DNA of 64,000 bases from an uncultured Acidobacteriota bacterium (GCA_963725325.1 CAVRYF010000014.1:810390-874389), one strand, 5' to 3'. Shown: positions 1,060 to 50,664, numbered from the stretch's first letter. Translations and numbers: made by a program. Notes: a model not told the origin generated them from the letters alone.

Positions 1060-1129
1060 GGTCCCGTCGAAAGGGGGGCTCTCTGGAGATCTCTTCGTCG
1101 GGTGAGGATCTCGCGCTAACATCTTGTCC

Positions 1130-22722: not shown

Positions 22723-24327
22723 TCAACGCGATGAGGGTTCGTGGCAGGTGCCGGCAGGGATATGGCGGATCTGTTGAACGGCGGCCGGCCGATCCGGAGA
22801 CGATGGTTGAAGGTCGTACACCTTCACGCTCATTGGTCGGTCGAGTGCGGCAATCGGCCCGGCAGCGATCCGCGCGAGTGCTGACTGGCCGCGAAACCGC
22901 AGGGCAAAGATCGGCTCTTCCCAATCGTCGAGGACGGCATACGGGTGATAGCCCAGCCCGCTCAACATCTCCACAGTCCGATCGAGCCATGCCGCGTCCA
23001 GCTGGTCGAAGCGCAGCGTCGTTCGACCTGAGTAATAGCGGATGCTTCCGCTGTGCTGGCCCGACACCAGCACCGCCTTCTCGGGAAGCGACTGGGCGAC
23101 AAACGACGCGACTTCGATCGCGCGCTGTTCTCCCTCGCCGAGTCCCACGATCCGCTTGTCCCTCGCAAACGCAGCGCCATGGGTGGCGGCCGCGACGACG
23201 AAGATTGAGGTGACCAGAACGCGGGCCGTTGGTCCGAACCATCCGGCAACCGAGGCAACACCATCGATGGCGACGATGAAGACGATCGGAAAGGCGGGAA
23301 GCAGGAACCGCAGATACCACCACGCGTCGTAGGAGTAGTACGGCAGGTACGCGCACCAGACGAGCGCGGCGAACCCGAGGCCCCACGTCAGGACGTTCCC
23401 GAAGCCGCGCCGCAGCTGGAGCGCTCCGCCCAGGAGGACGGCCAGCAGGTAAAAGCCCTGACTCTCGAACAGCCATTCCGTCTGAAGGACGAAGTTTCGT
23501 CGGACTCTCCCGATACTGTACAACCCCGAGAGCGATCCGTAGCCCGATTCGAGCGGCGATCCGTACAGGCTGGCATTCAAGATGGCCACGCCCGCGATGA
23601 ACGGCAGCAGTCCTGCCACGATCGCCAGCGCGGCTCGCCACCACGCGGAGCGATCGATCGCAACAATCCGAAAGAGCACAAGGCCGGCCGGAACGATGGC
23701 GAGCGGCACGAGATTGGGACGGATGAGAATCGCCAGACCTGTGACGGCGCCGGTCACGAGCGCGCCCCTCCACGTCGTGGACGACGAGGCGATCAACAGG
23801 GCGAGCAGCCAGCAGGCGGAGACGGGCACGTCGCTCAACGGCCACATCATCATGAAGAAGAGCGTCGGGCTGGTCGCCATCCACACCGCCGCACCCACAG
23901 CGACGAGCGGATCGCTCACGCGCACGGCGAGCAGGTAGGTGAACCAGACGAGCAGCGCCGCCGTGATCGGTACCACGACATACACGGCACACGGCCCGCC
24001 GACGGTCCGGGCAAGTGCCATGAGAATCGGCAGCCCGGGGGCGTAGGTCGGGACGTTGCCGAACGCGCGCTGCGCCGGCCGGTAGCCGAGGGGCGCAAGC
24101 GTGGCCGCCGCATTGGGCCACACGGCCAGCCGGACGAGCGGCTCGGGCTGAATCAGACTGCCCTGGCTCCAGAGCTGCGCCTGACTGACGTAGCCGTACG
24201 GGTCCGACCCCGACGCGACGTGCGACCCGAGGGACAGACTGGTCGCGCACACGCCCGCCGCGATCATCGCCACGATGGATCCGGCCTTTTGAGGAAACGC
24301 CTGAAGGGAGCGGAGGACGCCGCGCAT
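22723..24327 (-). CDS. GT-C fold glycosyltransferase (family 39 / ArnT-PMT-like) membrane protein
   Basis: The N-terminal two-thirds is polytopic, with early YGYV...Q and PGLPILMALA loop motifs. A soluble C-terminal domain follows. Confidence 0.6.
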   Translation of the reverse strand: MRGVLRSLQAFPQKAGSIVAMIAAGVCATSLSLGSHVASGSDPYGYVSQAQLWSQGSLIQPEPLVRLAVWPNAAATLAPLGYRPAQRAFGNVPTYAPGLPILMALARTVGGPCAVYVVVPITAALLVWFTYLLAVRVSDPLVAVGAAVWMATSPTLFFMMMWPLSDVPVSACWLLALLIASSSTTWRGALVTGAVTGLAILIRPNLVPLAIVPAGLVLFRIVAIDRSAWWRAALAIVAGLLPFIAGVAILNASLYGSPLESGYGSLSGLYSIGRVRRNFVLQTEWLFESQGFYLLAVLLGGALQLRRGFGNVLTWGLGFAALVWCAYLPYYSYDAWWYLRFLLPAFPIVFIVAIDGVASVAGWFGPTARVLVTSIFVVAAATHGAAFARDKRIVGLGEGEQRAIEVASFVAQSLPEKAVLVSGQHSGSIRYYSGRTTLRFDQLDAAWLDRTVEMLSGLGYHPYAVLDDWEEPIFALRFRGQSALARIAAGPIAALDRPMSVKVYDLQPSSPDRPAAVQQIRHIPAGTCHEPSSR

Positions 24328-31711: not shown

Positions 31712-32080
31712 ATGAAGCAGTCACCGCTCGAGGATCGCGTGAAGGACGACCACAAAGGCGACGAGAGCAGGATCGTCTATTGGCACCGCCAGCTGCCTCC
31801 CATCGACGCCGAGGTGATGGGGGAACACACCGTGGAAGCCACGAGCAGCCGTGTCGCTGGCACCCTTGCCCACCGAGACGAGCTCTGGGATCGGTGCTAC
31901 GCGGAGCTGATGGCCAACACGCATGAGCGGCTGGCTCAGGAGGTCGCCCGCCTCGGTGGCCACTACGCCCACGTCTACGACGAATCCATCGACACGAAAC
32001 GCGACGATGCGGCTGGCGAGGCGTGGCTGCACGGTCGTTTCTCGTACGTGCTGTTCGGCCGGGCGTCCGGATCGGCGTAG
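31712..32080 (+). CDS. Hypothetical 122-aa protein
   Basis: The ORF is intact with coding-like codon usage. No motif was recognised. Confidence 0.4.
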   Translation: MKQSPLEDRVKDDHKGDESRIVYWHRQLPPIDAEVMGEHTVEATSSRVAGTLAHRDELWDRCYAELMANTHERLAQEVARLGGHYAHVYDESIDTKRDDAAGEAWLHGRFSYVLFGRASGSA

Positions 32081-32141
32081 CCCTCAACTCGTCGGCTACT
32101 GCGTGCCGAGCGTCTCGGAAGATGGCCCTGAGGCCAAGACC

Positions 32142-32915
32142 ATGAGATATCCAACGGGCACAGTCCGCGGAATTCTCGCAGCCGGAGTCCTCGCGGTGGT
32201 GGTTGCGACCCCCCTCGGGGCTCAGAGCGAGAGCCAGACGCCGCCGATCCTCGTCGAGTCGCTGACTGGACGCGACTCGTTCGAACTCTATTGCTCGCCG
32301 TGCCACGGAAAGACGGGCCGGGGTGAGGGGCCGGTGGCGCCTGCCTTGAGAGCGAAACCCACCGATCTCACTCGCCTGTCGCAGCGCTACGGCGGAGCGT
32401 TCCCCACCGACGGCGTCCGTGCGATTGTGACCGGCGTGGGACGCCCGATGGCCGCGCACGGGACGAGCGACATGCCGGTGTGGGGCCCTCTCTTTCGAGC
32501 CTTCGAGTCGGACGTCCGCGTTCGTGTGCGAATCGCGAACATCGTCGACTACATCGAGAGCCTGCAGCAGAAGCCTGGCGGTTCGACGGATCCAGGTCCG
32601 CAGCTGTTCAAGACGTACTGTGCCTCGTGCCACGGCGTGAACGGCCGTGGCGCCGGCCCCGCGGCCGAGCAGTTGCGAAAGACGCCGCCCGACCTGACAA
32701 AATACACAGCACGCAACGGCGGCATCTTTCCGAGCGAGCGCCTGCGCCAGATCATCGACGGTCGTGGAGTGGCCGCGCACGGCGATCGCGAGATGCCCGT
32801 CTGGGGCGATGCCTTCCAAAGCACTCGTGGCGGGGTGACACCCGAGGCAGCCAAGGCTCGCATCGATGCGATCGTCCGATACCTCGACGGCATTCAGGAG
32901 AAAGCCGCACAGTAG
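32142..32915 (+). CDS. Secreted di-haem c-type cytochrome
   Basis: The ATG at 32142 gives a signal peptide (ILAAGVLAVVVATPLGAQ). There are two CxxCH sites (CSPCHG, CASCHG), each followed by a DMPVWG/EMPVWG Met ligand region. Confidence 0.8.
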   Translation: MRYPTGTVRGILAAGVLAVVVATPLGAQSESQTPPILVESLTGRDSFELYCSPCHGKTGRGEGPVAPALRAKPTDLTRLSQRYGGAFPTDGVRAIVTGVGRPMAAHGTSDMPVWGPLFRAFESDVRVRVRIANIVDYIESLQQKPGGSTDPGPQLFKTYCASCHGVNGRGAGPAAEQLRKTPPDLTKYTARNGGIFPSERLRQIIDGRGVAAHGDREMPVWGDAFQSTRGGVTPEAAKARIDAIVRYLDGIQEKAAQ

Positions 32916-32931: not shown

Positions 32932-33957
32932 TCACTTTGGAGCCGGCTTCAACTGTTGCGCGCTCCGGCCAGTATAGCTCTCGAGAACCTTGATGTAGTT
33001 GCCGCGCACGAACGCACTCGAGTCCTTCACCGACTGCTGGCTCATCGAGCCGCGCATCTGGCTGACCGAGTTATAGCCCTTCCGCTCCATCCATGCCGTC
33101 ATCTCCTCGAGAACTCTCGCGAAAAACGGCGGTCCCTGTTGCAGGAGGGCGGAGGTGCTCATCACGACGTCGGCGCCGGCCATCAGATACTTGATGGCCT
33201 CGACGTGGCTGTGCACGCCAGTGGTCGCCGCGAGCGAGGCCGACACGCGTCCGTACAACAGTGCAATCCACAAGAGCGGGAGACGGATTTCACCAGGCGT
33301 GCTGAGCGCTATCGCGGGAGCCACGGTCCGGCTTTCGATGTCGAAGTCCGGCTGATAGAAGCGGTTGAAGAGCACCAGTGCGTCGGCGCCCGCTTCCTCG
33401 AGCTGACACGCCATGTCCGCAAACGAGCTGAAGTAAGGACCGACCTTGATTGCCACCGGAATCGACACCGTGGCCTTCACCGCTGACAGCACATCGACAT
33501 ACTGCTGTTCGACCTCGGCGCCCGAGCGGAACGTCTCGGTGGGAATGTAGTACACGTTCAGCTCGATGCCGCTCGCGCCCGCGTCCTCCATCTCTTTCGC
33601 GAAGGTCACCCAGCCATGTTCGCTGACGCCGTTGAGGCTCGCGATAATCGGGATGTCGACGGCTTCGGTGGCCCTGCGGATGAGATCGAGGTACTGGCGA
33701 GGACCGACGTCGTAGTCCTGAACGGCGGGAAAGTACGAGACCGACTCGCCGTAGCTCTCGCTGCCGAGCTTCATGAAGTGCTCGAGCGCCGCCGAGTCGT
33801 GCGTGATCTGCTCTTCGAAGAGCGAGAACATCACGACGGCGGCCGCGCCGTTGTCCTCCAGTCGGCGGATGGCGTCGAGGCTCTCCGAGAGGGGAGACGC
33901 CGAGGCCACGAGCGGGTTCTTGAGCGTCAGGCCCATGTATCGGGTCGTCAAGTCCAT
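32932..33957 (-). CDS. Dihydroorotate dehydrogenase-like FMN TIM-barrel protein (PFOR-linked)
   Basis: AAGGAG lies upstream of the ATG. LKNPLVASASPLS, GASGIELNVY and a class-1 DHOD-like layout are present. It starts 18 nt downstream of PFOR. Confidence 0.8.
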   Translation of the reverse strand: MDLTTRYMGLTLKNPLVASASPLSESLDAIRRLEDNGAAAVVMFSLFEEQITHDSAALEHFMKLGSESYGESVSYFPAVQDYDVGPRQYLDLIRRATEAVDIPIIASLNGVSEHGWVTFAKEMEDAGASGIELNVYYIPTETFRSGAEVEQQYVDVLSAVKATVSIPVAIKVGPYFSSFADMACQLEEAGADALVLFNRFYQPDFDIESRTVAPAIALSTPGEIRLPLLWIALLYGRVSASLAATTGVHSHVEAIKYLMAGADVVMSTSALLQQGPPFFARVLEEMTAWMERKGYNSVSQMRGSMSQQSVKDSSAFVRGNYIKVLESYTGRSAQQLKPAPK

Positions 33958-33975
33958 GGTGCGTCTCCTTTCCTC

Positions 33976-36900
33976 CTAGACCTTGGTGGCGTTCTTTGAG
34001 GCTGCAGCCGGGGCGGGTACGTGACTCCCGGGCTCGCCTTGGCCGCGCCGGGCGGTGGCGGGCCACCGGTCGGCCAGTGCGGAATAGACGCGCCAGCGCT
34101 GGTTGACGTCTTCCTGTGCCAGCCCGAGCAGCCGCTTCGCCGCGCCGGGATTGGTATAGGAAAGCATCTTGTAGCGGATCTCGTTGTACGCGTACGCCTT
34201 CAGCGGGATCGACGGTGCCTGCGAATCGATCACGAACTCCTGTCGCTCGCGGCCGGCCGCCGGCGGCTTGAAGCGATAGAGCGGCCAATGCCCGCTCTCG
34301 ACCGCCAGTTTCTGCTGCCGCATGCCAAAGCGCATGTTGATGCCATGCGCGATGCAGTGGCTGTAGGCGATGATGATCGACGGCCCGTCGTGCGCCTCGG
34401 CTTCGAGAAACGCGTCCATCGTCTGCTGCGACGACGCGCCCATGGCAATCTGCGCGACGTAGACATTGCCGTACGCGACCGCCATCAGACCGAGATCCTT
34501 CTTCGCGCTGGACTTCCCGCCCGCCGCGAACTTGGCGACCCCGCCGCGCGGGGTCGATTTGGACGCCTGACCGCCTGTATTCGAATAGACCTCGGTGTCG
34601 AGAACGAGGACGTTGACGTTTCGTCCCGACGCCAGCACGTGATCGAGGCCACCGTAGCCGATGTCGTACGCCCACCCGTCACCGCCAACAATCCAGACGC
34701 TCTTTCGCACGAGGTGCTTCGTGAGCGTCAGCAGCCGTTGGGCTGTCGGATCCTGCAGCGATTGCAGCAGCTGCTCGAGCACCGCGACGCGATCCCTCTG
34801 GGCGTCGACGTCCGCCTGTGTGATTTGCGGCGCCTCCAGGACCTCACGAACGCGCTCCGGCCCGAGCCGGGGCGACAGCAGAGCGAGCAGCCGCTCCGCC
34901 TCCTCGCGCTGTGTGTCGAGCGATACGCGGAAACCCAGACCGAACTCGGCGTTGTCCTCGAAGAGCGAATTCGCCCACGCCGGCCCGCGGCCCTGCTTGT
35001 TGACCGACCACGGGGTCGTGGGCAGGTTGCCGCCATATATGGACGAACACCCCGTCGCGTTGGCGACGAGCAGGCGGTCGCCGAAGAGCTGCGTCAGGAG
35101 CCGCAGGTAAGGTGTCTCGCCGCACCCGGCACACGCGCCGGAGAACTCGAAGAGCGGCGTCAGGTACTGCGCGCCGCGCACCAGCGCCGCATCCAGTCCC
35201 ATGGGCTTGTTGTCGGGCAGCGCCTCGAAGAACTCGAAGTTCCTTCGTTCGCGCTCGAGGACCGGGGCCTTGGCCTCCATGTTGATGGCGCGGACGCCCG
35301 CCGCCTCCGGGCTCCGCACGGGACACGCTTCGACACAGAGCTCGCACCCGGTGCAGTCCTCCACCGCCACCTGCAGCGTGTATCTCAGGTTCGGGAACCC
35401 TCGGCCGGCGAGCGGCGCGGACGGGAACCCGTCTGGCGCGTTCGCCAGCAGGGGATCGTCGTAGTACCGCGCACGGATGGTCGCGTGCGGACACACCATC
35501 ACGCAGTTGCCGCACTGGATGCACAGCTCCGGCTTCCACACGGGGACGATGTCGGAGATGTTGCGCTTTTCCCATTGGGCCGTCCCGGACGGATAGGTGC
35601 CGTCAGCGGGGAGTGCGCTGACCGGCAGCTCGTCGCCGCGCCCGGCGATCATCATGGCCGTCACGTTCCTGACGAAGTCCGGCGCGCGCGCGGGCACGAG
35701 CGGAGACGACTCGCGGGTGCTGGTCGCGGACGCAGGCAGCGTCACCTCGTGCAGGTTCTCGAGCGCGCGATCGACAGCCGCGAAGTTGCTCTCGACGAGA
35801 TCCGAACCCTTGCGGGCATAGGTTGCCTGGATGGCGTCCTTGATACGGGCGATGGCGTCCTCGCGCGGCAGCACGCCGGAAATGGCAAAGAAGCAGGTTT
35901 GCATGATCGTGTTGATCCGGCCGGGCATGCCTGCCTCGGTCGCCACGCGATCCGCGTCGATGGTGAAGAGCCGGATGTGCTTGGCGACGAGCGCCTCCTG
36001 CATCGAGCGTGGCAGCTCGTTCCACAGATCGCCAGGCGCGAAGGGGCTGTTGAGCAGAAACACCGCTCCGTCGGTCGCCGCATTGAGTACGCCGAGCATC
36101 TCGCCGCGCTCGACGAACTGGAACTGATGGCAGGCGATGAACTGGGCGCGCTGCACCAGGTACGCCGATCGGATCGGTTGAGGCCCGAAGCGGAGGTGCG
36201 ACGTCGTCCGCGACCCGGATTTCTTCGAGTCGTAGACGAAGAAGCCCTGGGCGTAGCCCGGGGTCTGCTCGCCGATGATCTTGATCGAGTTCTTGTTCGC
36301 CCCCACGGTGCCGTCGGCGCCGAGGCCGTAGAAGATGCAGCCGACCACGTCGGCCGCCTCGGTGATGAAACGCGGGTCGTATTCCAGGCTGGTCTGCGAC
36401 ACATCGTCGTTGATGCCGACCGTGAAGTGGTTCTTCGGGGAAGCGGACCGGAGGTTCTCGAACACCGCCTTGACCATCGCTGGCGTGAATTCCTTCGACG
36501 CGAGCCCATAGCGCCCGCCGACGATTCGCGGCATGTCGGGACGGCGGCCGTCGGTCATCGCCTCGGCGAAGGCCGTAACGACGTCCTGGTACAGCGGCTC
36601 GCCGGACGCTCCCGGCTCCTTGGTCCTGTCGAGCACTGCGATGGCCTTGACTGATTGGGGGACGGCGTCCAGCAGATGACTCACGGCAAACGGCCGGAAG
36701 AGGTGCACCTGCACGACCCCGAGCTTCGCACCGCGGCCATTCAGGTGGTCGATGGTCTCCCGCACGGTCTCGACACCTGAGCCCATGAGCACGATGACGT
36801 GCTCCGCGTCGGCGGCGCCGAAGTAGTCGAACAACCGGTACCGGCGCCCGGTCAGCGCGGCGAATCGGTCCATCGCCGCCTCGACGATGGACGGAACGGC

Positions 36901-37611
36901 CGCGTAGAACGGGTTGGCGGTCTCGCGCCCCTGGAAGTAGACGTCGGGGTTCTGTGCCACGCCCCGCACGACGGGACGATTGGGATCGAGCGCCCTCGCC
37001 CGATGCGCGAACACCAGCGCATCGTCGATCATTGCGCGCAGATCGTCATCGGAGAGGACCTGGATTCTGCTGACCTCGTGCGAGGTGCGGAAGCCGTCGA
37101 AGAAATGCACGAACGGGATGCGCGACGAGAGGGTCGCGTTCTGCGCGATGAGGGCAAGGTCGTGCGCCTCCTGCACCGAGCTCGAACAGAGCATCGCCCA
37201 GCCTGTCATCCGCGCGGCCATGACGTCTGAGTGATCGCCGAAGATCGAGAGCGCCTGCGTCGCGATGGCGCGGGCCGCCACGTGGAAGACGGCCGGCGTC
37301 AGCTCCCCGGCAATCTTGAACATGTTGGGGATCATCAGCAGCAAGCCCTGAGACGCAGTGAAGGTCGTCGTCAGCGCACCCGTCTGCAGGGCGCCGTGGA
37401 CCGTGCCCGCGGCACCGCCTTCGCTCTGCATCTCGATGACGTGCGGCACCGTTCCCCAGATGTTGGTCTTGCCCTCGGAGGCCCACTGGTCGGCCAGTTC
37501 ACCCATGGTCGAGGAGGGCGTGATCGGGTAGATGGCGCAGACCTCGTTCGTGCGGTAGGCGATGGAGGCGGCGGCCTCGTTGCCGTCCAGGGTTTTTACG
37601 TGTGTCGCCAT
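33976..37611 (-). CDS. nifJ: Pyruvate:ferredoxin (flavodoxin) oxidoreductase, single-chain
   Basis: It is 1211 aa. The two ferredoxin-type clusters are CIQCGNCVMVCPHA and CTGCELCVEACP. The TPP site is GGDGWAYDIGYGGLDH. Confidence 0.95.
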   Translation of the reverse strand: MATHVKTLDGNEAAASIAYRTNEVCAIYPITPSSTMGELADQWASEGKTNIWGTVPHVIEMQSEGGAAGTVHGALQTGALTTTFTASQGLLLMIPNMFKIAGELTPAVFHVAARAIATQALSIFGDHSDVMAARMTGWAMLCSSSVQEAHDLALIAQNATLSSRIPFVHFFDGFRTSHEVSRIQVLSDDDLRAMIDDALVFAHRARALDPNRPVVRGVAQNPDVYFQGRETANPFYAAVPSIVEAAMDRFAALTGRRYRLFDYFGAADAEHVIVLMGSGVETVRETIDHLNGRGAKLGVVQVHLFRPFAVSHLLDAVPQSVKAIAVLDRTKEPGASGEPLYQDVVTAFAEAMTDGRRPDMPRIVGGRYGLASKEFTPAMVKAVFENLRSASPKNHFTVGINDDVSQTSLEYDPRFITEAADVVGCIFYGLGADGTVGANKNSIKIIGEQTPGYAQGFFVYDSKKSGSRTTSHLRFGPQPIRSAYLVQRAQFIACHQFQFVERGEMLGVLNAATDGAVFLLNSPFAPGDLWNELPRSMQEALVAKHIRLFTIDADRVATEAGMPGRINTIMQTCFFAISGVLPREDAIARIKDAIQATYARKGSDLVESNFAAVDRALENLHEVTLPASATSTRESSPLVPARAPDFVRNVTAMMIAGRGDELPVSALPADGTYPSGTAQWEKRNISDIVPVWKPELCIQCGNCVMVCPHATIRARYYDDPLLANAPDGFPSAPLAGRGFPNLRYTLQVAVEDCTGCELCVEACPVRSPEAAGVRAINMEAKAPVLERERRNFEFFEALPDNKPMGLDAALVRGAQYLTPLFEFSGACAGCGETPYLRLLTQLFGDRLLVANATGCSSIYGGNLPTTPWSVNKQGRGPAWANSLFEDNAEFGLGFRVSLDTQREEAERLLALLSPRLGPERVREVLEAPQITQADVDAQRDRVAVLEQLLQSLQDPTAQRLLTLTKHLVRKSVWIVGGDGWAYDIGYGGLDHVLASGRNVNVLVLDTEVYSNTGGQASKSTPRGGVAKFAAGGKSSAKKDLGLMAVAYGNVYVAQIAMGASSQQTMDAFLEAEAHDGPSIIIAYSHCIAHGINMRFGMRQQKLAVESGHWPLYRFKPPAAGRERQEFVIDSQAPSIPLKAYAYNEIRYKMLSYTNPGAAKRLLGLAQEDVNQRWRVYSALADRWPATARRGQGEPGSHVPAPAAASKNATKV

Positions 37612-37675
37612 GTGGCTTTCCTCTGTCGCCCCCGCGCGAGTGCGGTCTCTCCGTGTTGTGGTGTTGTCGGCGCTT

Positions 37676-39271
37676 CTATGCCTCGGCGGCCGTCGGCGCG
37701 ACCGGCTCGGGAATCATCGTGATCGCTCCGCACGGACACTGGTCGTAACAGATCGCACAGCCCGTGCACTTGGCGAGGTCGTACTCGTATCGCCGGCCCG
37801 GACCGAGCTTGATCACGGCTTGCTCGGGACACGCCGAGTAGCATCCGTCGCATTCGAAGCAGTTGCCGCACGAGAGGCACCGCTGGGCTTCGTATCGCGC
37901 GGCCGAGGGATCGAGTCCGCCGACGACCTCGTCGAAGGTCAGCCTCCGTCGATCGAGATCGATCGTGCTCTGGCCGCGCTTGGTGGCCTCGGCGTGATAC
38001 CAGAGCCGCAGCATCTCGAACTTTGCGACCTCGTGCTTGGTCTGCGTCGCGGGCGCCTCGCTGCGGAGCCAGGCGTCGATGTGCCGTGCGGCCTTCTTGC
38101 CGTGCCCGACCGCGGTGGTCACCGTCCGCGCATACGGGACCATGTCGCCGCCTGCGAAGACGCCAGGGCAGCCGGTCTGCATGTCGCGCCCCACGGTGAC
38201 CGTGCCGTCCTTCTTGAATGTGATGCCGGGGACCGACTTCAGAAACGTCGTGTCGGTGTCCTGGCCGAGGGCAAGAATCACAGAATCGGCTTCGAGCGTC
38301 TCGATCTCGCCGGTCGGCACCGGATAGCGGTTCTCGTCGAGCTTCATGACCTCGACATGAAGCGTCGTGCCGTCAATCTCCTTGATCGTTCGGAGCCAGT
38401 GGATCTTGACGCCCTCTTCAATCGCTTCATCGGCCTCGAAGTCGTGCGCCGGCATCTGCTCGCGCGTGCGGCGGTAGATGATGAGCGGCTCGGCCCCAAG
38501 TCTGGCGGCCGTGCGGGCCGCATCCATCGCCGTGTTGCCGCCGCCGTAGATAGCGACGCGCCGGCCGATGCGCGGTGGCTCCCCACCGGTCTCGACTTCC
38601 TTGAGGAACTGCAGCGCGTCGTAGACCTTGACGGCGTCGCGCGCGGGAATTTCCTGACGTTTGCTCAGGTGTGCGCCGACGGCAAGGAAGACCGCATCGA
38701 ACCGCCCTTCGGCTTTCTCGGTCGTGAGATCGGCGACCTTGTGGTTCAGGACGATCTCCACACCGATCCTGCGGATGCGGTCGATCTCGCCGTCCAGAAC
38801 TTCCCGCGGCAGCCGGTACTTCGGGATGCCGAAGTGCATCATGCCGCCCGCCATCGGACCGGCCTCGTGGATGACCACTTCATGCCCACGGCGGGCCAGG
38901 TGCCAGGCGGCCGAAAGGCCGCTCGGTCCGGCGCCGACGACGAGCACGCGTTGCCCTGATGACGGTTGGTCGGGCAGAACGGTCCAGCCTTCTGTGAGGG
39001 CCAGGTCACCCAGAAACCGTTCGACGGCATGGATGCTGACCGCCTCGTCGACATCCTTGCGGTTACACGCGTCTTCGCACGGGTGGTAGCAGACGCGGCC
39101 ATGGACGGCCGGCATCGGATTGTCGCGAACGATGATCTCCCAGGCCTCGCGATAGCGGCCGGCCTGTGCCTCGGCGAGCCAGGCCTGGATGTTCTCGCCC
39201 GCCGGACAGCCGTGGTTGCACGGGGGAAGACGGTCGACGTAAACCGGGCGCATCGTACGCACTGGCGGCAT
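37676..39271 (-). CDS. GltD-like NAD(P)H-dependent FAD oxidoreductase with C-terminal 2x[4Fe-4S] ferredoxin domain
   Basis: The ATG at 39271 has GGAGG 9 nt upstream. The N-terminal Cys cluster region is CNHGCPAG...CYHPCEDAC. The Rossmann motifs are VLVVGAGPSGLSAA and VAIYGGGNTAMDAART. The C-terminal clusters are CLSCGNCFECDGCYSACP and CTGCAICYDQCPCGA. Confidence 0.85.
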   Translation of the reverse strand: MPPVRTMRPVYVDRLPPCNHGCPAGENIQAWLAEAQAGRYREAWEIIVRDNPMPAVHGRVCYHPCEDACNRKDVDEAVSIHAVERFLGDLALTEGWTVLPDQPSSGQRVLVVGAGPSGLSAAWHLARRGHEVVIHEAGPMAGGMMHFGIPKYRLPREVLDGEIDRIRRIGVEIVLNHKVADLTTEKAEGRFDAVFLAVGAHLSKRQEIPARDAVKVYDALQFLKEVETGGEPPRIGRRVAIYGGGNTAMDAARTAARLGAEPLIIYRRTREQMPAHDFEADEAIEEGVKIHWLRTIKEIDGTTLHVEVMKLDENRYPVPTGEIETLEADSVILALGQDTDTTFLKSVPGITFKKDGTVTVGRDMQTGCPGVFAGGDMVPYARTVTTAVGHGKKAARHIDAWLRSEAPATQTKHEVAKFEMLRLWYHAEATKRGQSTIDLDRRRLTFDEVVGGLDPSAARYEAQRCLSCGNCFECDGCYSACPEQAVIKLGPGRRYEYDLAKCTGCAICYDQCPCGAITMIPEPVAPTAAEA

Positions 39272-39501
39272 CCCCCTGACCTCCTCTGGCCTCTGGTTGC
39301 CAGATCGAGAGCAACGGGCGAGCCATCGCGTTTCCTGATGTTTACGGCACCGCGCGCGGCAGCGCTTCAAGCTCCCGCAGTTCCGATTGGGAGAATTTCA
39401 CCAGTCCTGGGAAGAAATCCCGGTGGGGTCAGGTTGCGTCCGGCTACCGGCACGCTTCATGCGATGAAGCTCTGGCGCTACGAAATCGGAAGGAGCCCAA
39501 T

Positions 39502-40077
39502 ATGGCAAGACCTGTCGTCGCCGAGTCCTGGAGAAGGTCGGTCCTCCTGTGCCTCTTCTTCGCGGCAATGACGCAAACGGCCTGGGCTCAGGGGATCGCT
39601 GGTTCGTTCGAGCAATTGAAGGTGCTCGTCCGGCCGGGAGACACCGTGACCGTCACCGAGACGACCGGACAGGAGCTCACTGGCAAGATCGACGAACTAT
39701 CGTCCTCGACGATCGCCCTGCTGGCGGGAGGCACGCGCCGGGTCCTGAGCGAGGGCGACGTCAGGACGGTTCAGCAGCGGCACAATGATTCTCTTGCCAA
39801 CGGCGCACTCTATGGGCTCGCCATTGGAGCCGGCGCGGCAACCGCCCTGATCATTGCCGTTGCGGCTGTTGATAGCGAAGAGGTGGACGCCGGCCTCGCC
39901 GCACTGGCGATCGGAGCCTACGGTGGCATTGGCGCCGGCGTCGGTGTCGGCGTGGATGCATTGATCAGGAAGCGACATGTGATCTATCAGCGGCAGTCAC
40001 TCGCCGGGGTGCAGGTTGGAATCGCACCGTGGCTGACGAGTCAGCGGAAGGGAGTGCTCGTTACGCTGCGCTTCTAG
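39502..40077 (+). CDS. Hypothetical secreted/membrane protein with Gly/Ala-rich hydrophobic segment
   Basis: AGGAG lies upstream. It has a signal peptide (LLCLFFAAMTQTAWAQG). No motif was recognised. Confidence 0.5.
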   Translation: MARPVVAESWRRSVLLCLFFAAMTQTAWAQGIAGSFEQLKVLVRPGDTVTVTETTGQELTGKIDELSSSTIALLAGGTRRVLSEGDVRTVQQRHNDSLANGALYGLAIGAGAATALIIAVAAVDSEEVDAGLAALAIGAYGGIGAGVGVGVDALIRKRHVIYQRQSLAGVQVGIAPWLTSQRKGVLVTLRF

Positions 40078-40095: not shown

Positions 40096-40701
40096 TCACG
40101 AATGACGGCCGTCGCGGGCGGCCTCGGGATCGTCGGCGGGGTCCTTCTTCAGCGCGAGTCGCAGCACTGGTAGCTGCCGGCGATATCCCTCGGCGTCGCC
40201 GTAGTCGACGAACTCGTGATAGCGGGGGTGCGGCGCCCGGACGCGCTTCGCGTGTCTGATCGGACACCGGTACCTTTCGGTACGCCCCGCCACCTCGCGC
40301 ACGTACGCGAACAGCCCGTTCGCGTACCCGCAGTACACGCAGTTGAGCTTCTCGATGCCATTCAGGTAGGCCAGGTGGTGGCGGTCGATCACGATGTAGG
40401 CCGATCGGCGAACCCGGGCCACGCCGTAGATCGGAAAGCAGACACGCTGGTAAACCGTGATCCAGATGTCGAGCAGCGCAATCGGCACGATCATCGAAAA
40501 GATCAGCGGCGCCGTCAGCGCATTCGGAATGCTGCTCTCGCGCAGGAAGGTCCGAATTCGTTGCTTGAGGCGCTGGTGCGCCAGGCGGGCCTGGTGCTCG
40601 AAGCGGATGCGTCCGGCAACGATGCGATAGCTCCACTCGGCGCGCGTGCGATTGAGCTCGTACTCCAGCTCGCGCTCGAGCTGCGCCATGTGTTCCATCA
40701 A
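40096..40701 (-). CDS. Hypothetical membrane protein (coiled-coil N-terminus, two TM helices, CVYC...C motif)
   Basis: The ORF is intact with good codon bias. It is divergent from the SNF2 gene. No family was recognised from memory. Confidence 0.5.
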   Translation of the reverse strand: MMEHMAQLERELEYELNRTRAEWSYRIVAGRIRFEHQARLAHQRLKQRIRTFLRESSIPNALTAPLIFSMIVPIALLDIWITVYQRVCFPIYGVARVRRSAYIVIDRHHLAYLNGIEKLNCVYCGYANGLFAYVREVAGRTERYRCPIRHAKRVRAPHPRYHEFVDYGDAEGYRRQLPVLRLALKKDPADDPEAARDGRHS

Positions 40702-45794: not shown

Positions 45795-46023
45795 GGCTAC
45801 CCCTTGTTGACGGACGCCGATCGTGTCGCCGACCGGATATTACGTCGTCTTCACGGGCGGAAACCAGTCTCGACGGTCCGGCGCTCGGCGTTCGGCGCTC
45901 GGGAAGGCCCGAAACCTGAGCTCTGAGCCCCCGTCTTGAGCCTCTCCCAGTACGTATGCTAAGTTCATAGCACCTTTTGCCGACTTCATCCGTCTAAGGG
46001 TTGTGGACAACAGACAGACACTC

Positions 46024-46413
46024 ATGAAAACGCCGCCCCATCACGAGCTCAGCCGTAGAGAACGGCAGATCATCGATATCCTTTATACGCGCGGCCGCGG
46101 CACGGCCGCCGAGGTCCAGACAGCCCTGCCGGACCCCCCCAGCTACTCAGCCGTGCGCGCGATGCTGCGGATTCTCGAAGAAAAAGGCCATGTCCGGCAC
46201 GAGCAGGACGGGCCCCGATACGTTTACCTGCCGACCGTGGCGCGCGACAACGCCAAGCGGTCTGCCCTCCGCCACATGTTGCGGACCTTCTTCGACGGCT
46301 CGGCGGAACAGGCCATCTCGGCGCTGCTCGACGACTCCTCGACCAAGATGTCTGACATCGAACTGGACCGCCTGGCCAGGATGATCAGTGACGCCCGCAG
46401 GACCGGAGCCTAG
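46024..46413 (+). CDS. BlaI/MecI/CopY-family winged-helix transcriptional repressor
   Basis: LSRRERQIIDILY...TAAEVQ...SYSAVRAMLRILEEKGHV.HEQDGPRYVY.P is typical of the family. An alternative GTG start is at 46003. Confidence 0.85.
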   Translation: MKTPPHHELSRRERQIIDILYTRGRGTAAEVQTALPDPPSYSAVRAMLRILEEKGHVRHEQDGPRYVYLPTVARDNAKRSALRHMLRTFFDGSAEQAISALLDDSSTKMSDIELDRLARMISDARRTGA

Positions 46414-46415
46414 CC

Positions 46416-48812
46416 ATGAATGTAGTCGCTGAAATGAACGCGTTCGTGAACGGACTCGACGGCCTCTGGCTGCCAGCCGTCGACGCCCTGATCAAGGTCA
46501 CGCTCGTCCTCGGCGTCGCGGGTGCCGCGGCGCTTGTGCTCGGTCGCGCGTCGGCCGCGCTGCGCCATCTGGTGTGGACGCTGGCGCTCACGAGCGCGCT
46601 GGTGCTTCCGGCCCTCTCCATCGCGCTTCCCCGTTGGCAGTTGCCGATCGTCACGCTGACGAGCGAGGCTGCGCCGGCAGCAGCCGAGGCCATGGCGACC
46701 GCCCCGTCACTGTCCCGCCGCACGCGGACGTCTGACGCCGTCGTCATCACGAAAGGCGATGCCTCGGCCGCAATCGCCCCGTCAACGCCAGCGGCAGCCG
46801 TGCCTCCCGTCGTCCGCGTCACGCCCCGCATTTCTCTGACGATGGCGCTCGTGGCGATCTGGGCGGCCGGGGTTCTCGCCGTCGTCGGCCGTCTCGTGGT
46901 CGGCATCATCGCCGTCCAGTGGATGTCGCGGCGAACCGTGCGTGTCGTCGACGCCCCGTGGCTGCCGCTCGCGCTGGAGCTGGCCTCCAGCCTCGGCATC
47001 ACGCGGCGACTGGTGTTCCTCGAGAGCGCCCGCGCGACCATGCCGATGGCGGCGGGCGTCTTCACGCCGTCGGTGCTGATGCCGGAGGATGCGAACTACT
47101 GGCCGCTCGAGCGGCTGCGCATTGTCCTCCTGCACGAGCTCGCGCACGTGAAGCGCCGCGACTGCCTGACGCACGTCATCGCGCAGCTCGCCTGCGCGCT
47201 GCACTGGTTCAACCCGCTCGCCTGGATTGCCGCGCGGCACATCAGGACCGAGCGCGAACGGGCGTGTGACGATCTGGTCCTCGCCTGCGGAACGCGGGGA
47301 CCGGACTACGCGGAGGAGCTGCTCGAGATCGCGCGTGTCATGCGCGGCGGCCGTTGCCCCGCTCTCCTCGCCGGCGCAACGCTCGCCATGGCCCATCGTT
47401 CGCAGCTCGAGGGACGTCTCATCGCGATTCTCGATCCGAAGGTGCCGCGCTCGAGTGTGTCGCCGGTCAGGGCGGCGCTCGTGGCGGCAGCAGTGGCGTG
47501 TGCGCTGCCACCCCTCGCGGCGATGCAGCCCTGGGCGGTCACCACCGTCGAGGCGACGGCAGCCGTCCCGTCCAGCGTCCTGCCCGCCGACGCAGAGACG
47601 CGCGCGCCGCAGGTCATGGCTGCTCCAACGCCGCAGCCGCAACCTCGTCCCGCGCCGTCACCGCGTCCCGAGGCCGCGTCGTCATTCGGATCGGAGATCG
47701 CTCAGACCGTGGCGGACTCGGTCCGCGACAGCGCCACGCAGGTAATGGTTCAAGGCGCCGTGCAGGGCGCCGTGCAGCAAGGTGTCCAGTCGGCGGTGCA
47801 GGGCGCTGTTCAGGGCGCACTACACGGCATCGACGTGGGAGCCATCGAGCAGGATGCGAAGCGTGCGTCCGCCGATCCCCGGATGGTCGCGGCACTGACG
47901 GCCGCGCTCAAGGACTCCGACAAGGATGTCCGCGAGACCGCCATGCATGCGCTCGTGCAGCTGCGCGATCCGTCGATCTTCGAGCCGCTCGTGCAGGCCC
48001 TGAAGGATCCGTCGCCCGACGTCCGTGAGCAGGCCGCGCATGGTCTCTCGCAGCTTCGTGACAAGCGGGCGGTAGAGCCGCTGATGGGCGCGCTGAAAGA
48101 TTCGAACGCCGACGTTCGTGAAAGCGTCATCCACGCGCTCAGCCAGCTGCGCGATCCGCGGGCAGTCGACGGGCTCATCGGCGCGCTCAAGGACGAGAAT
48201 CCGAGCGTGCGCGAGCAGGCGGCGTTCGCGCTCGGCCAGCTGCGCGATGCCCGCGCCGTCGATCCCTTGATCGCGGCGCTGAAGGACTCGAACAACGACG
48301 TCCGCCAGCAGGCGGCGTTTGCGCTCGGGCAGTTGCGCGACAAACGGGCTGCCAGCGCGCTTGCGGGCCTGATCAAGGATACCGACGCGGACGTCCGTCA
48401 GCAGGCCGTGTTCGCGCTCGGTCAGCTGCGCGACGGGTCGGCCGTGGACGGTCTCGTCCTCGCGCTGCGCGACGCGAAGCCCGACGTCCGCGAACAGGCG
48501 GCGTTCGCGCTCGGCCAGATCCGTGACGCGCGCGCTGTGCCGGCCCTGATCTCGTCGCTCAAGGACGAGGCGCCGGATGTGCGCCAACAGGCAGCCTTCG
48601 CCCTCGGCCAGATTCGCGATCGCGGAGCGGTCGAAGCGCTCGTCATCGCCATCAAGGATCCATCGGCCGACGTGCGGGAACAGGTCGCGTTCGCGCTCGG
48701 GCAGATTCGCGATCCCCGGGCCATCGACGCGCTCACGGGAGCGCTGAAAGACACCAGCGCGGACGTGCGGCAGCAGGCAGCGTTCGCAATCGGTCAGCTC
48801 GCTCGGCAATAA
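46416..48812 (+). CDS. BlaR1/MecR1-like M56 membrane metalloprotease fused to a C-terminal 10-unit HEAT-repeat domain
   Basis: It starts 2 nt after the BlaI-like stop. It has three N-terminal TM helices, the zinc motif LLHELAHVKRRD, a fourth TM (VRAALVAAAVACALPPLAA), a Pro-rich linker, a (GAVQ)n stretch and ten 31-aa HEAT units. Confidence 0.85.
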   Translation: MNVVAEMNAFVNGLDGLWLPAVDALIKVTLVLGVAGAAALVLGRASAALRHLVWTLALTSALVLPALSIALPRWQLPIVTLTSEAAPAAAEAMATAPSLSRRTRTSDAVVITKGDASAAIAPSTPAAAVPPVVRVTPRISLTMALVAIWAAGVLAVVGRLVVGIIAVQWMSRRTVRVVDAPWLPLALELASSLGITRRLVFLESARATMPMAAGVFTPSVLMPEDANYWPLERLRIVLLHELAHVKRRDCLTHVIAQLACALHWFNPLAWIAARHIRTERERACDDLVLACGTRGPDYAEELLEIARVMRGGRCPALLAGATLAMAHRSQLEGRLIAILDPKVPRSSVSPVRAALVAAAVACALPPLAAMQPWAVTTVEATAAVPSSVLPADAETRAPQVMAAPTPQPQPRPAPSPRPEAASSFGSEIAQTVADSVRDSATQVMVQGAVQGAVQQGVQSAVQGAVQGALHGIDVGAIEQDAKRASADPRMVAALTAALKDSDKDVRETAMHALVQLRDPSIFEPLVQALKDPSPDVREQAAHGLSQLRDKRAVEPLMGALKDSNADVRESVIHALSQLRDPRAVDGLIGALKDENPSVREQAAFALGQLRDARAVDPLIAALKDSNNDVRQQAAFALGQLRDKRAASALAGLIKDTDADVRQQAVFALGQLRDGSAVDGLVLALRDAKPDVREQAAFALGQIRDARAVPALISSLKDEAPDVRQQAAFALGQIRDRGAVEALVIAIKDPSADVREQVAFALGQIRDPRAIDALTGALKDTSADVRQQAAFAIGQLARQ
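47874..48809 (+). repeat. Coding tandem array of ten 93-bp (31-aa) HEAT/PBS-lyase-type repeats
   Basis: The unit consensus, read from the translation, is D.RAV..LI.ALKD...DVRQQAAFALGQLR. The first unit begins with the GAT at 47874. Confidence 0.9.
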
Positions 48813-48836
48813 CCTTCAAGCAGGAGTCGCACATCA

Positions 48837-48855
48837 GTGCCGGCCTCGCCGGCAC
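48837..48855 (+). terminator. Stem-loop GTGCCGGC-CTC-GCCGGCAC after the BlaR1-HEAT gene (possible extension 48821-48864)
   Basis: The perfect 8-bp inverted repeat was read directly. Outer CAGGAGT/ACTCCTG could extend the stem. There is no adjacent U-tract. Confidence 0.35.
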
Positions 48856-48903
48856 GCACTCCTGCGAGCGTCAGTGCTAGTTTTCTAGCAGAAGAGAGGG
48901 GTC

Positions 48904-50664
48904 ATGAGTCCGATTGCCGTCTTCTTTCGCACGCTCAGCCGGTCGAGTGCCATCTGCCTCGGCATCGGCCTCGTCATCGTCAACCCACCGTTCGACTGGT
49001 CGCCTGGCAAGGCGATGACGGGCCAAGCGGTGTTGACGGGAGTCACCGCGCAGAAGAGCCCGAACGAGGCGGCCATCGATGGGTTGATTGGCGCCCTCAA
49101 GGACAGCGACGCCGGCGTCCGCCGCCAGGCCGCGCTGGCACTTGGCGAGTTGCGCAGCCCGAGAGCCGTGCCCGGTTTGATCGAAGCACTCAAGGATTCG
49201 CAGACCGATGTCCGGTTGCACGCGATCATGGCGCTCGGCGAGCTCGAGGACGTGCGGGCGACGCCGGCTCTCGCACAGGCGCTCAAAGATGCCGAACCGA
49301 AAGTCCGCGCCAGGGCCGCCGCTGCCCTCGCCGAGCTTCGTGATCGCGGCGCTGTCGACGCGCTCATCGCCGCGGTCAAGGACAGCAACGTCGACGTGCG
49401 GAAGCAGGCGCTCATGGCCCTGGCGGAGATCCGCGACGAGAGCGCCCTCACAGCCATCACTGCGGCGCTCAAGGACGAGGACGCGAGTGTGCGCCGGGCG
49501 GCAGCCATGGCGTTGGCGGAGCTGAGCGGCGGCGGCTCACATGATGGAGCGCATCCCAACCCGCATCCTCATCCGCATCCACATCCGCGCCCGAACCCGA
49601 ATCCAGAATCCCAATCCCAATCCCAACCCGCGGCCGGGCGGAGTCCACTGATCATGCCGCGCTGCTCTCTCGTCCTGTGTGCCCTGCTGACGACGGTTCC
49701 CTCCGGCGGAGGCGGGCGCTTGATAGCCGCGGTGGATCGGCCGGCAATCCAGTCCGTGCACGACGCGCGGCCGGCACGCGAGCTCATCACGGAGCTCGGC
49801 GCCTCGGATGCAGCCGTGCGCACACGCGCCGCGTGCGGGCTTCGGGAGCTCGGCGACCGCGCGGTCGACGCCATCGGCCCGCTCGTCAAGCAGCTGGCGG
49901 ACGGCGCGCCGGTCGACGGCACGCTCTGCGGCCGGCGGTGGTCGCGCAACGGCGAAGAGAACCTGACGAGCCCCGGCGAGGAAGCGGCGGCGACGCTCGT
50001 GGCCATCGGCACCCGCGCCTTCGAGCCTGTTCTCACGGCGCTGCGCCAGGACGCGTGGATCGCACGACGCAACGCCGCGTGGGCGCTCGGCGCCCTCGAC
50101 GACAATCGCGCGGTCGCGGCGCTCAGCGAAGCATTGCGCGATCGCGAGGCACCCGTGCGCGAGCAGGCCGCGTGGGCCCTTGGAGCGATCGACGACACCG
50201 CCGCCGTACCCGCTCTCGTTGCGGCGCTAGACGATCAGGATCCGCGGGTCCGGCGTCAGGCCGCGTGGGCCCTCGGCGCGATCGACGATTCACGGGCCGT
50301 CGCGGGACTCAGCAAGGCCCTGAACGATGTCGACGAGAAGACGAGGAGCCAGGCAGCCTGGGCCCTTGGTGCGATTGACGACCGTGCGGCGGTGCAGGCG
50401 CTGGCGCGCGCGCTCGGCGACAAGGCCTCGAGTGTTCGCAAGCAGGCCGCATGGGCCCTCGGCGCGATCGACGACTCCGGAGCCGTCGAACCGCTGGTGC
50501 GCGTGCTCACTGATGAGAGCCCGGAGGTCAGGGAGCAGGCGGCATGGGCTCTCGGTGCCATCGGCGATTCCCGCGCGGTGCCGGGCCTGCTCGTTGCCCT
50601 CAAGGACAACAGCGTCGGCGTCCGACGTCAGGCCGCTTGGGCGATCGGGGCGATTGGCCGCTGA
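48904..50664 (+). CDS. HEAT-repeat protein with two repeat blocks separated by a low-complexity linker and a hydrophobic segment
   Basis: GAGAGGGG lies upstream of the ATG. The N-terminal hydrophobic segment is AICLGIGLVIV. There are five HEAT units (49063-49527), a linker HPNPHPHPHPHPRPNPNPESQSQSQP (49552-49629), a hydrophobic segment CSLVLCALLTTV, then about seven HEAT units (to 50661). Confidence 0.8.
   Translation: MSPIAVFFRTLSRSSAICLGIGLVIVNPPFDWSPGKAMTGQAVLTGVTAQKSPNEAAIDGLIGALKDSDAGVRRQAALALGELRSPRAVPGLIEALKDSQTDVRLHAIMALGELEDVRATPALAQALKDAEPKVRARAAAALAELRDRGAVDALIAAVKDSNVDVRKQALMALAEIRDESALTAITAALKDEDASVRRAAAMALAELSGGGSHDGAHPNPHPHPHPHPRPNPNPESQSQSQPAAGRSPLIMPRCSLVLCALLTTVPSGGGGRLIAAVDRPAIQSVHDARPARELITELGASDAAVRTRAACGLRELGDRAVDAIGPLVKQLADGAPVDGTLCGRRWSRNGEENLTSPGEEAAATLVAIGTRAFEPVLTALRQDAWIARRNAAWALGALDDNRAVAALSEALRDREAPVREQAAWALGAIDDTAAVPALVAALDDQDPRVRRQAAWALGAIDDSRAVAGLSKALNDVDEKTRSQAAWALGAIDDRAAVQALARALGDKASSVRKQAAWALGAIDDSGAVEPLVRVLTDESPEVREQAAWALGAIGDSRAVPGLLVALKDNSVGVRRQAAWAIGAIGR

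Follow-up and report, generated by a model that had tools for sequence, protein, structure and literature searches.

A pyruvate:ferredoxin oxidoreductase gene as the hub for two independent accessory genes, with a possible direct route from pyruvate to NADP+

A stretch of 64,000 nucleotides (nt) from an uncultured Acidobacteriota bacterium (GCA_963725325.1, CAVRYF010000014.1:810390-874389; hereafter the window, with positions counted from its first letter) carries three consecutive genes, called here A, B and C, which encode a flavoprotein resembling NfnB and the glutamate synthase small subunit GltD, a single-chain pyruvate:ferredoxin oxidoreductase (PFOR), and a barrel protein resembling dihydroorotate dehydrogenase (DHOD). 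Comparison of this locus with its counterparts in other bacteria indicates that PFOR is the hub of the arrangement and that A and C are independent accessories; since each occurs without the other, they are probably not two halves of one protein. We propose, with a probability of about one half, that A-PFOR-C is a PFOR-centred redox module with two separate, independently acquired partners, in which A would deliver electrons to nicotinamide adenine dinucleotide phosphate (NADP+) and flavin mononucleotide (FMN) bound to C would provide a second exit. The three genes had been noticed in an earlier reading of the sequence alone (the original prediction), which described their common orientation, the gaps of 64 and 18 nt between them and a Shine-Dalgarno sequence before each, and identified A as GltD-like with a cysteine-cluster N-terminus and a 2x[4Fe-4S] domain, B as single-chain PFOR and C as a DHOD-like barrel. 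Inspection of the open reading frames (ORFs) and spacers confirmed the former, and family and domain matches the latter.

Loci collected with C as the query were reduced to one genome per species, which left 80 loci, 63 of them with enough sequence to judge the presence of A; taxa of metagenome-assembled genomes (MAGs) are given as in the record titles. In 79 of the 80 species-level loci the gene immediately before C, on the same strand, is that of PFOR, and in 47 of the 63 evaluable ones PFOR is itself immediately preceded by A. This arrangement is far beyond chance. The complete trio was found in Acidobacteriota, Gamma- and Alphaproteobacteria, Gemmatimonadota, a Labilithrix MAG, Phycisphaerales and Fimbriimonadales, and the adjacency is conserved in about ten phyla; the original prediction depended on such co-conservation. 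In the other 16 of the 63 loci PFOR-C stands without A, no A-like gene being present within 8 kb, and no conserved substitute for A was found in them. Their hosts are Ignavibacteria/Melioribacter, Bacteroidota, Chloroflexia, Ktedonobacterales, Calditrichaeota, Bdellovibrionales and Heliobacteriaceae, together with one Gemmatimonadota MAG and one unclassified bacterium. An apparent gene of 95 amino acids (aa) between PFOR and C in one locus (L086) was rejected, being a frameshifted C-terminus of PFOR.

A scan of metagenomes with the A protein of Aeromonas as the query yielded 80 loci, 77 evaluable for PFOR and 40 for C. A single-chain PFOR follows A in 74 of the 77, while C follows PFOR in 23 of the 40 and is missing from 17, for which no common substitute was found. 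By nearest-neighbour identity, the PFORs of the C-less loci form one main group, with others lying beside C-bearing PFORs in at least four separate positions. Aeromonas caviae likewise has A-PFOR with no C within 5.4 kb downstream. Cultured bacteria also carry the trio, which is annotated in RefSeq as A-nifJ-C on plasmids of Phenylobacterium zucineum HLK1 and Methylovirgula sp. HY1. On the P. zucineum plasmid (locus L091, 7872-16915), a zinc-dependent alcohol dehydrogenase gene lies 25 nt upstream of A and a gene for type II glyceraldehyde-3-phosphate dehydrogenase lies downstream of C, neighbours that suggest a fermentative, NAD(P)H-linked context.

The A protein matches the NCBIfam family PRK12771 ('NAD(P)-binding protein') over residues 4-522 with 749 bits, the cut-off being 516, and consists of the Pfam domains Fer4_20 (7.6e-22) and Pyr_redox_2 (1.2e-36) followed by two C-terminal CxxCxxCxxxCP motifs. 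Its best relatives of solved structure are the GltD-like modules 9bov_A, 9n5u_A and 8oh5_C, the last of which we take to be StnC of Sporomusa ovata, and then NfnB (5jca_L and 4ylf_B), with E-values from 1e-99 to 1e-71; dihydropyrimidine dehydrogenase (DPD) is a far weaker match to the flavin module (E 2.5e-33). The first CxxC of NfnB is missing from the N-terminal cluster region of A, which has only five cysteines and Glu84, the latter aligning with Glu126 of PfNfnI-B. Residues 445-482 of A, containing the segment EAQRC465LSC468, align instead with the N-terminus of NfnB (residues 22-57 of 5jca_L and 14-43 of 4ylf_B), an alignment which indicates that A is circularly permuted relative to NfnB, as are StnC-type chains, with Cys465 and Cys468 apparently supplying the missing ligands. 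Among 48 homologues of A, Cys18, 22, 61, 65 and 69 and Glu84 are kept in all, Cys465 and Cys468 in 46, and the cysteines of the C-terminal segment, including both ferredoxin motifs, in at least 94%; the YRR motif, which presumably binds the 2'-phosphate of NADPH, is again invariant (48/48). Because these ligands and motifs are conserved, A probably carries four [4Fe-4S] clusters, flavin adenine dinucleotide (FAD) and an NADPH site. A fold with two [4Fe-4S] clusters, one of them with a Glu ligand, FAD and YRR is common to A, NfnB, the ferredoxin:NADP+ oxidoreductases (Fnor) of the Cac_0764 type (PMC12221290) and the StnC/9bov_A modules. StnC-type chains also share with A the permuted place of the first CxxC, but they are about 1170 aa long and belong to a different complex. 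Compared with NfnB, A lacks an NfnA partner, has His in place of Arg333 and has an additional PorD-like 2x[4Fe-4S] domain, and its gene adjoins those of 2-oxoacid:ferredoxin oxidoreductases (OFORs). Assignment to GltD proper failed: A scored 196 bits with TIGR01317 (cut-off 447.7) and 258 with TIGR01318 (cut-off 483), and there is no Glu_synthase gene nearby. At the Labilithrix locus (L045) the frame of A is open for 761 codons beyond the conserved start, upstream of position 2788, which could be an artefact of high G+C content or reflect a gene fusion.

The best families outside its own for the C-terminal ferredoxin domain of A are PorD_Arch (1e-9) and PorD_KorD (1.8e-9), followed by PreA (2.3e-5), and its PDB matches include the PFOR delta subunit 9bt4_G, while DPD is not among the best 60 of 105. 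On this comparison the domain is most like the PorD delta subunit, and its homology with domain V of DPD or with PreA, which had been considered, was ruled out. The three A-seeded loci with no single-chain PFOR (L146, 5041-9614; L163; L169) fit such a likeness: there a porC-porA-porB operon without porD ends with A, the A-family gene scores 781 bits with PRK12771, and its C-terminus matches PorD_Arch at 76 bits. These operons seem to encode a 2-oxoacid oxidoreductase of several subunits in which an NADP(H) flavoprotein is joined to the delta subunit. On plasmid 2 of Aromatoleum aromaticum, the genes for the alpha and beta subunits of a two-subunit OFOR are directly preceded by a gene more distantly related to A (32% identity over 98% of A); the sizes of the three products match those of KorC, KorA and KorB. 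KorABC of Azoarcus evansii is reportedly a three-subunit 2-oxoglutarate:NADP+ oxidoreductase with KorC as its GltD-type FAD/Fe-S subunit (Ebenau-Jehle, Boll and Fuchs 2003). In the five-subunit phenylglyoxylate:NAD+ oxidoreductase PadEFGHI, too, a GltD-type FAD/Fe-S subunit gives an OFOR direct reduction of NAD(P)+. Both differ from the system described here in that the partner is a two-subunit 2-oxoglutarate:ferredoxin oxidoreductase or a multi-subunit OFOR rather than a single-chain PFOR and in that there is no DHOD-like third gene; the low identity of the Aromatoleum gene to A is a further difference.

Protein B is an ordinary PFOR by family assignment (TIGR02176, 1765 bits, cut-off 911, residues 6-1181; Pfam TPP_enzyme_C and POR_N). 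B (residues 6-1181) and the Moorella thermoacetica enzyme (6cin_A, residues 4-1170) are collinear, with no large insertion, and a special docking insertion in B was therefore ruled out. The ligands of three [4Fe-4S] clusters are found in the two CxxCxxCxxxCP motifs of domain V and in the segments GACAGCGETPY, ATGCSS and SHCIAHG of the translation. The alignment with Desulfovibrio africanus PFOR (1231 aa) stops at residue 1162 of the latter, and the C-terminal extension of that enzyme, which we take to serve oxygen protection, is unmatched in B. Comparison of PFORs from loci with and without A placed 14 of the top 60 separating columns in domain V, where 6 were expected (Fisher p 0.0016), the A-less set consisting of 16 sequences from a handful of lineages that are not phylogenetically independent. 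A further 8 of the top 60 columns lie at residues 805-816, and three control splits by clade gave 1, 6 and 7 domain V columns, with no enrichment. This pattern fits docking of A at domain V of PFOR.

We infer that A and PFOR form a physical complex in which A, most likely, turns PFOR into a pyruvate:NADP+ oxidoreductase. A would dock on PFOR's own ferredoxin domain, accept electrons from the distal cluster of PFOR and conduct them along its own four clusters to FAD, which would reduce NADP+, most likely in a step that involves no bifurcation. PFOR and A together would thus act as a non-covalent pyruvate:NADP+ oxidoreductase in no need of free ferredoxin. More broadly, the hub would be a 2-oxoacid oxidoreductase: in the porCAB-A operons A would be the enzyme's own delta subunit, and beside a single-chain PFOR it would serve as a ferredoxin held in place by docking. 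Reduced ferredoxin generated by PFOR allows stand-alone proteins of the NfnB type to reduce NADP+ (PMC12221290). The coupling of PFOR to NAD(P)+ through A, as suggested in the original prediction, is supported by the predicted cofactor sites, the PorD-like domain and the enrichment in domain V. A eukaryotic counterpart in terms of reaction is the pyruvate:NADP+ oxidoreductase of Euglena and Cryptosporidium, in which PFOR is fused to an FMN/FAD domain of the cytochrome-P450-reductase type; the overall reaction proposed here, from PFOR to NADP+ with no free ferredoxin, would be the same, but the genes are separate and A has an unrelated fold.

C belongs to the NCBIfam family PRK07565 ('dihydroorotate dehydrogenase-like protein'; 470 bits, cut-off 303, residues 1-329), while its match to Pfam DHO_dh is weak (51.6 bits), its scores with the DHOD and PreA models are far below the cut-offs (PRK07259, 94 against 269; PreA, 77 against 335), and the YgfK model gave no match. 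The family comprises 1092 clusters at 50% identity (E<1e-30), and no Rosetta-stone fusions were found in it, the best 150 of the 50%-identity representatives all being stand-alone proteins of about 330 aa. The AlphaFold2 model of C, built from 86 diverse family members, has a predicted local distance difference test score (pLDDT) of 92.6. The closest PDB folds are class-1 DHODs and domain IV of DPD, with 16-21% identity and template modelling (TM) scores of 0.63-0.69, and none of these fold matches is a solved structure from within the C family. The barrel fold is thus common to C, PyrD (class 1B DHOD) and DPD domain IV.

Motifs of C were analysed with profile alignments to DHOD B and DPD for the 86 family members. 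The residues N134, K171, N198, S219, G247, G261 and S269 align with the FMN ligands of DHOD B and DPD and are conserved in at least 88% of the family. The catalytic loop ELN-x-S-C-P-N reads ELNVYYIPT in C; the column of the catalytic Cys (position 137 of C, Cys671 of pig DPD) is occupied by Y in 23, F in 14, S in 9, L in 7 and D in 6 of the 86 proteins, and the Lys43/Lys574 column (Lys43 in DHODA, position 44 of C) varies among P, H, Y, R and F. The family has conserved motifs of its own, such as SLFEEQ and FNRFYQPD, as well as W116, W230 and K256. C contains a single Cys, and hence no Fe-S cluster, and no membrane or quinone-binding extension was found on it. Judging from these residues, C is very probably a flavin barrel in which the reactions of DHOD and DPD have been lost; without the catalytic residues it appears not to be a pyrimidine enzyme, which agrees with the view taken in the original prediction.

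The automated label 'dihydroorotate dehydrogenase (fumarate)' carried by the C family is routine mis-annotation. Taken at face value, that label and the one of glutamate synthase small chain (PMC7650540) would make C a real dihydroorotate or dihydropyrimidine dehydrogenase and A a glutamate synthase small subunit, both merely lying beside PFOR. This is extremely improbable: the equivalents of the catalytic Cys/Ser and of Lys43 are missing throughout the C family, the DHOD, PreA and GltD models all remain far below their cut-offs, the 64-kb window holds no pyrimidine genes (pyrD and preTA included) and no glutamate synthase gene (gltB), and the adjacency is maintained in about ten phyla.

Relatives of C were also examined at 38-45% identity. 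Three are linked to PFOR, one of them as two tandem copies, one follows NiFe hydrogenase genes, and three have no adjoining PFOR. In this hydrogenase cluster (L082, 80-4870; sulfhydrogenase/group-3b-like), the relative of C, 39% identical to it, is the last gene after those for Fer4, PyrK-like, NiFe small-subunit and NiFe large-subunit proteins; therefore, the DHOD-like barrel is not exclusive to PFOR. In two loci (L083, 2313-8020, and L084) a tandem pair of DHOD-like genes comes after PFOR; they share 51% and 38.5% identity with C, and their products could form a heterodimeric barrel pair.

Since C is tightly linked to PFOR, retains the FMN site and recurs beside Fe-S enzymes, we infer that its FMN site is occupied and that this FMN would be fed from an Fe-S cluster of PFOR, with C acting as a two-electron exit or as a flavodoxin-like relay to a further acceptor. 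One could also hypothesise, more tentatively and with less than even odds by a good way, that C is a catalytic FMN subunit which gives PFOR a direct small-molecule partner. PFOR-C would then be a complete enzyme by itself, linking pyruvate with an acceptor, for example fumarate, or with a second pyruvate (dismutation to lactate), and A-PFOR-C would be a three-port machine that merges or splits electrons among pyruvate, NADP(H) and a third substrate. A protective or maintenance function of C, for example as an FMN oxidase that burns stray electrons on O2 or as a factor keeping the clusters of PFOR reduced, so that PFOR could operate in aerobic and facultative organisms, is quite unlikely. Many hosts (Vicinamibacterales, Ktedonobacterales, Competibacter, cyanobacteria) are aerobes or face changing oxygen, B has no counterpart of the D. 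africanus extension, and no substrate-like catalytic residue is conserved in C, all of which would suit such a function; but the module is also present in the anaerobic lineages Heliobacteriaceae and Anaerolineae, and a distant relative of C is linked to NiFe hydrogenase.

The notion of a split DPD whose halves flank PFOR, central to the original prediction, holds only as a count of domain types, A and C together covering every one that DPD contains (N-terminal cluster, FAD, NADPH, FMN barrel and 2x[4Fe-4S]). Two interdependent halves of a DPD- or PreT/PreA-like flavoprotein, into which PFOR is plugged, would form one wire NAD(P)H-FAD-4x[4Fe-4S]-FMN; the completeness of the trio in the 47 loci and the PyrK-like gene ahead of the distant C relative in the hydrogenase cluster, which recalls the wiring of DHOD B, could be cited in its favour. 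Nevertheless, we regard this as unlikely. The obligate pairing of PreT with PreA has no parallel here, A being absent from 16 of 63 C loci, which have no substitute neighbours, and C from 17 of 40 A loci and from Aeromonas; the ferredoxin domain of A is nearer to PorD than to PreA, its flavin module is far nearer to NfnB and StnC than to DPD, and C lacks not only the score for PreA membership but also the catalytic Cys, the Lys43/Lys574 equivalent and the Fe-S domain of PreA. Moreover, the A columns which separate loci with C from those without it cluster only in a variable linker that is enriched in the control as well, and they give no signal of an A-C contact.

The same gene order and domain description are known from another phylum. 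In Propionibacterium, PFOR is flanked by genes annotated as 'glutamate synthase small chain' and 'dihydroorotate dehydrogenase', the three are reported to be co-transcribed and co-regulated, and knockout of the PFOR gene cripples growth; a quinol-linked bifurcating complex was postulated there, with no biochemistry (McCubbin et al. 2020, PMC7650540). Membership of the Propionibacterium proteins in the A and C families is taken from the published description, and the postulated quinol-linked bifurcation differs from the transfer from A to NADP+ preferred here. In Synechocystis 6803, again of another phylum, the nifJ operon sll0741-sll0743-sll0744 has nifJ in transcription unit TU3296 together with sll0744, annotated as DHOD and assigned to the C family by description; no biochemistry accompanies it (PMC11368403), and no functional study of sll0744 is indicated in the literature searched. 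The co-transcription expected in the original prediction is therefore on record for Propionibacterium, and the literature searched bears out its statement that the DHOD-like partner had not been characterised, although the trio and the hypothesis of a complex were published in 2020.

A flavin-based bifurcating or confurcating complex, as outlined by McCubbin et al., would use the FAD of A to split or merge electron pairs between the PFOR branch and the FMN of C, and its high-potential partner could be quinol, lactate/pyruvate, fumarate or another substrate. Fer4_20, Pyr_redox_2 and both [4Fe-4S] ligand sets of NfnB, with the Glu ligand, are all present in A, and the trio offers three redox modules of different potential. 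By midpoint potentials, the conversion of lactate plus pyruvate with formation of two NAD(P)H is roughly balanced. Such a complex would also bear on the lactate redox problem of Propionibacterium, where regulation is shared between PFOR and the genes beside it and PFOR knockout severely impairs growth (PMC7650540). Bifurcating NfnB is distinguished from monofunctional ferredoxin:NADP+ reductases by Arg333 beside FAD, a longer N-terminus and an upstream nfnA (PMC12221290). The Arg333 signature is absent from A: of the 48 homologues, 44 have His and 4 have Leu at the corresponding residue 276, and the aligned StnC-type chains have Glu or Asn at this site; no nfnA-like gene ([2Fe-2S]/FAD, PyrK-like) was found beside A in the window region. 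C, with its one Cys, has neither a membrane nor a quinone-binding extension, and the two-gene modules A-PFOR and PFOR-C, which could not bifurcate in this way, are common. The bifurcating variant, which the original prediction had also allowed for, is therefore improbable and is not favoured here.

Several observations weigh against a hub with A leading to NADP+ and C as a second exit. The His276 of A corresponds neither to the NfnB state (Arg) nor to the usual Fnor state (Thr/Ser), which complicates its classification as non-bifurcating. Single-chain PFOR already has a ferredoxin domain, so the PorD-like domain of A would be an extra relay rather than a missing part. The domain V enrichment has the narrow lineage basis given above, and the PFOR columns that track the presence of C gave no clear domain signal (17 of the top 60 in domain III, about 11 being expected for a domain of that size). 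The C relatives that adjoin no PFOR, among them that of the hydrogenase cluster, belong here as well, and no biochemical or structural data on the A or C family were found in the literature searched.

The coordinates of the three genes, their spacers and domains are collected in Table 1.

Table 1. Features of the A-B-C unit in the window.
Feature	Position	Strand	Basis or remark
Divergent intergenic region, presumed promoter of the three-gene unit	39272..39501	.	Between the + gene start at 39502 and the A start at 39271
Gene A, 531 aa, NfnB/GltD-like FAD/NADP(H) Fe-S flavoprotein with C-terminal PorD-like 2x[4Fe-4S] domain	37676..39271	-	PRK12771
A residues 16-95, Fer4_20 region: Cys18, 22, 61, 65, 69 and Glu84	38987..39226	-	NfnB-type ligands of two [4Fe-4S] clusters
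A residues 108-391, FAD and NAD(P)H Rossmann domains, Y266-R-R motif, His276	38099..38950	-	Pyr_redox_2; position map from 5jca_L alignment
A residues 440-531, permuted EAQRC465LSC468 segment and two CxxCxxCxxxCP motifs (Cys471-481, Cys502-512)	37679..37954	-	NfnB alignments
A-B spacer, 64 nt, ribosome-binding site AGAGGAAAG	37612..37675	-	Sequence read
Gene B, 1211 aa, single-chain pyruvate:ferredoxin (flavodoxin) oxidoreductase	33976..37611	-	TIGR02176
Domain V of PFOR (B residues 678-799; 2x[4Fe-4S] ferredoxin domain), where A probably docks	35215..35580	-	Motifs CIQCGNCVMVCP, CTGCELCVEACP; 6cin, 1b0p alignment
B-C spacer, 18 nt, ribosome-binding site GGAGGAAAGGAG	33958..33975	-	Sequence read
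Gene C, 341 aa, DHOD-fold TIM barrel, probably FMN-binding, without Fe-S domain	32932..33957	-	PRK07565

The window has a G+C content of about 65%, and its nearest relatives are genomes of Vicinamibacterales (Acidobacteriota), with proteins A, B and C of one such locus (L001) being 91-92% identical to those described here. All three ORFs are on the minus strand, each preceded by a purine-rich ribosome-binding site. Gene A starts with ATG at 39271, in front of which GAGGAGG is found; the ORF is open further, to a TTG at 39370, but this extension is not conserved among homologues, and the ATG is therefore the likely start. A promoter and terminator scan gave nothing on the coding strand, with no terminator-like sites inside the unit, and its plus-strand matches were at chance level; no sigma-70 consensus was found in the 39272..39501 region upstream of A, and a promoter in this region is presumed. 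The unit stands alone, bounded upstream by a small gene that diverges from it and downstream by a cytochrome c gene that converges on it. The former (39502..40077, plus strand) encodes a small protein with a signal-peptide-like N-terminus and no Pfam match, and the latter (31923..32915, plus strand) has a Cytochrom_C/cbb3-type domain in its C-terminal third and a stop codon 16 nt from that of C.

Outside the unit, the window contains a resistance-nodulation-division (RND) efflux operon and a SNF2 helicase gene. Two large Ser/Thr protein kinase genes are located at 1124-4012 (plus strand) and 9180-12050 (minus strand); one of the kinases has an FGE-sulfatase domain and the other PDZ and GAF domains, and the gene at 9180-12050 coincides with an AT skew of 0.27 at 10-12 kb. 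The plus strand at 46003-50664 encodes, in this order, a BlaI-like repressor, an M56 peptidase of the BlaR1 type whose tail is a long series of HEAT repeats, and a protein consisting of HEAT repeats only. Besides the small divergent gene, ORFs with no Pfam match are located at 22723-24327, 55987-57906 and 40096-40701, all on the minus strand; these four ORFs have coding-like G+C content at third codon positions or lie beside the A-B-C unit.

As far as can be told, several of the points made here are absent from the reports on Propionibacterium and Synechocystis (PMC7650540 and PMC11368403), namely the hub with two independent adaptors, the likeness of A to PorD and its circular permutation, the porCAB-A operons with no porD, and the loss of catalytic residues throughout the C family. 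We would place the system among the NAD(P)+-linked 2-oxoacid oxidoreductases, with C as its one genuinely unexplained component. In the usual scheme, PFOR donates its electrons to ferredoxin or flavodoxin in free form. Were A to connect PFOR directly to NADP+, pyruvate would yield NADPH in a single step in many aerobic and facultative bacteria, among them soil Acidobacteriota, wastewater Competibacter, relatives of methanotrophs, Aeromonas and propionibacteria. Models of redox balance and carbon flux for these organisms would change, and engineering would gain a compact bacterial pyruvate-to-NADPH module of the kind sought in PMC12221290. C is among the genes most consistently linked to PFOR, and its acceptor, once identified, could help to explain the lactate redox puzzle of propionibacteria and the function of PFOR in oxygen-exposed cells. 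Should C prove to be a catalytic subunit, A-PFOR-C would represent a new class of 2-oxoacid oxidoreductase complex, and a function would be found for a DHOD-like family of more than 1000 clusters at 50% identity in about ten phyla.

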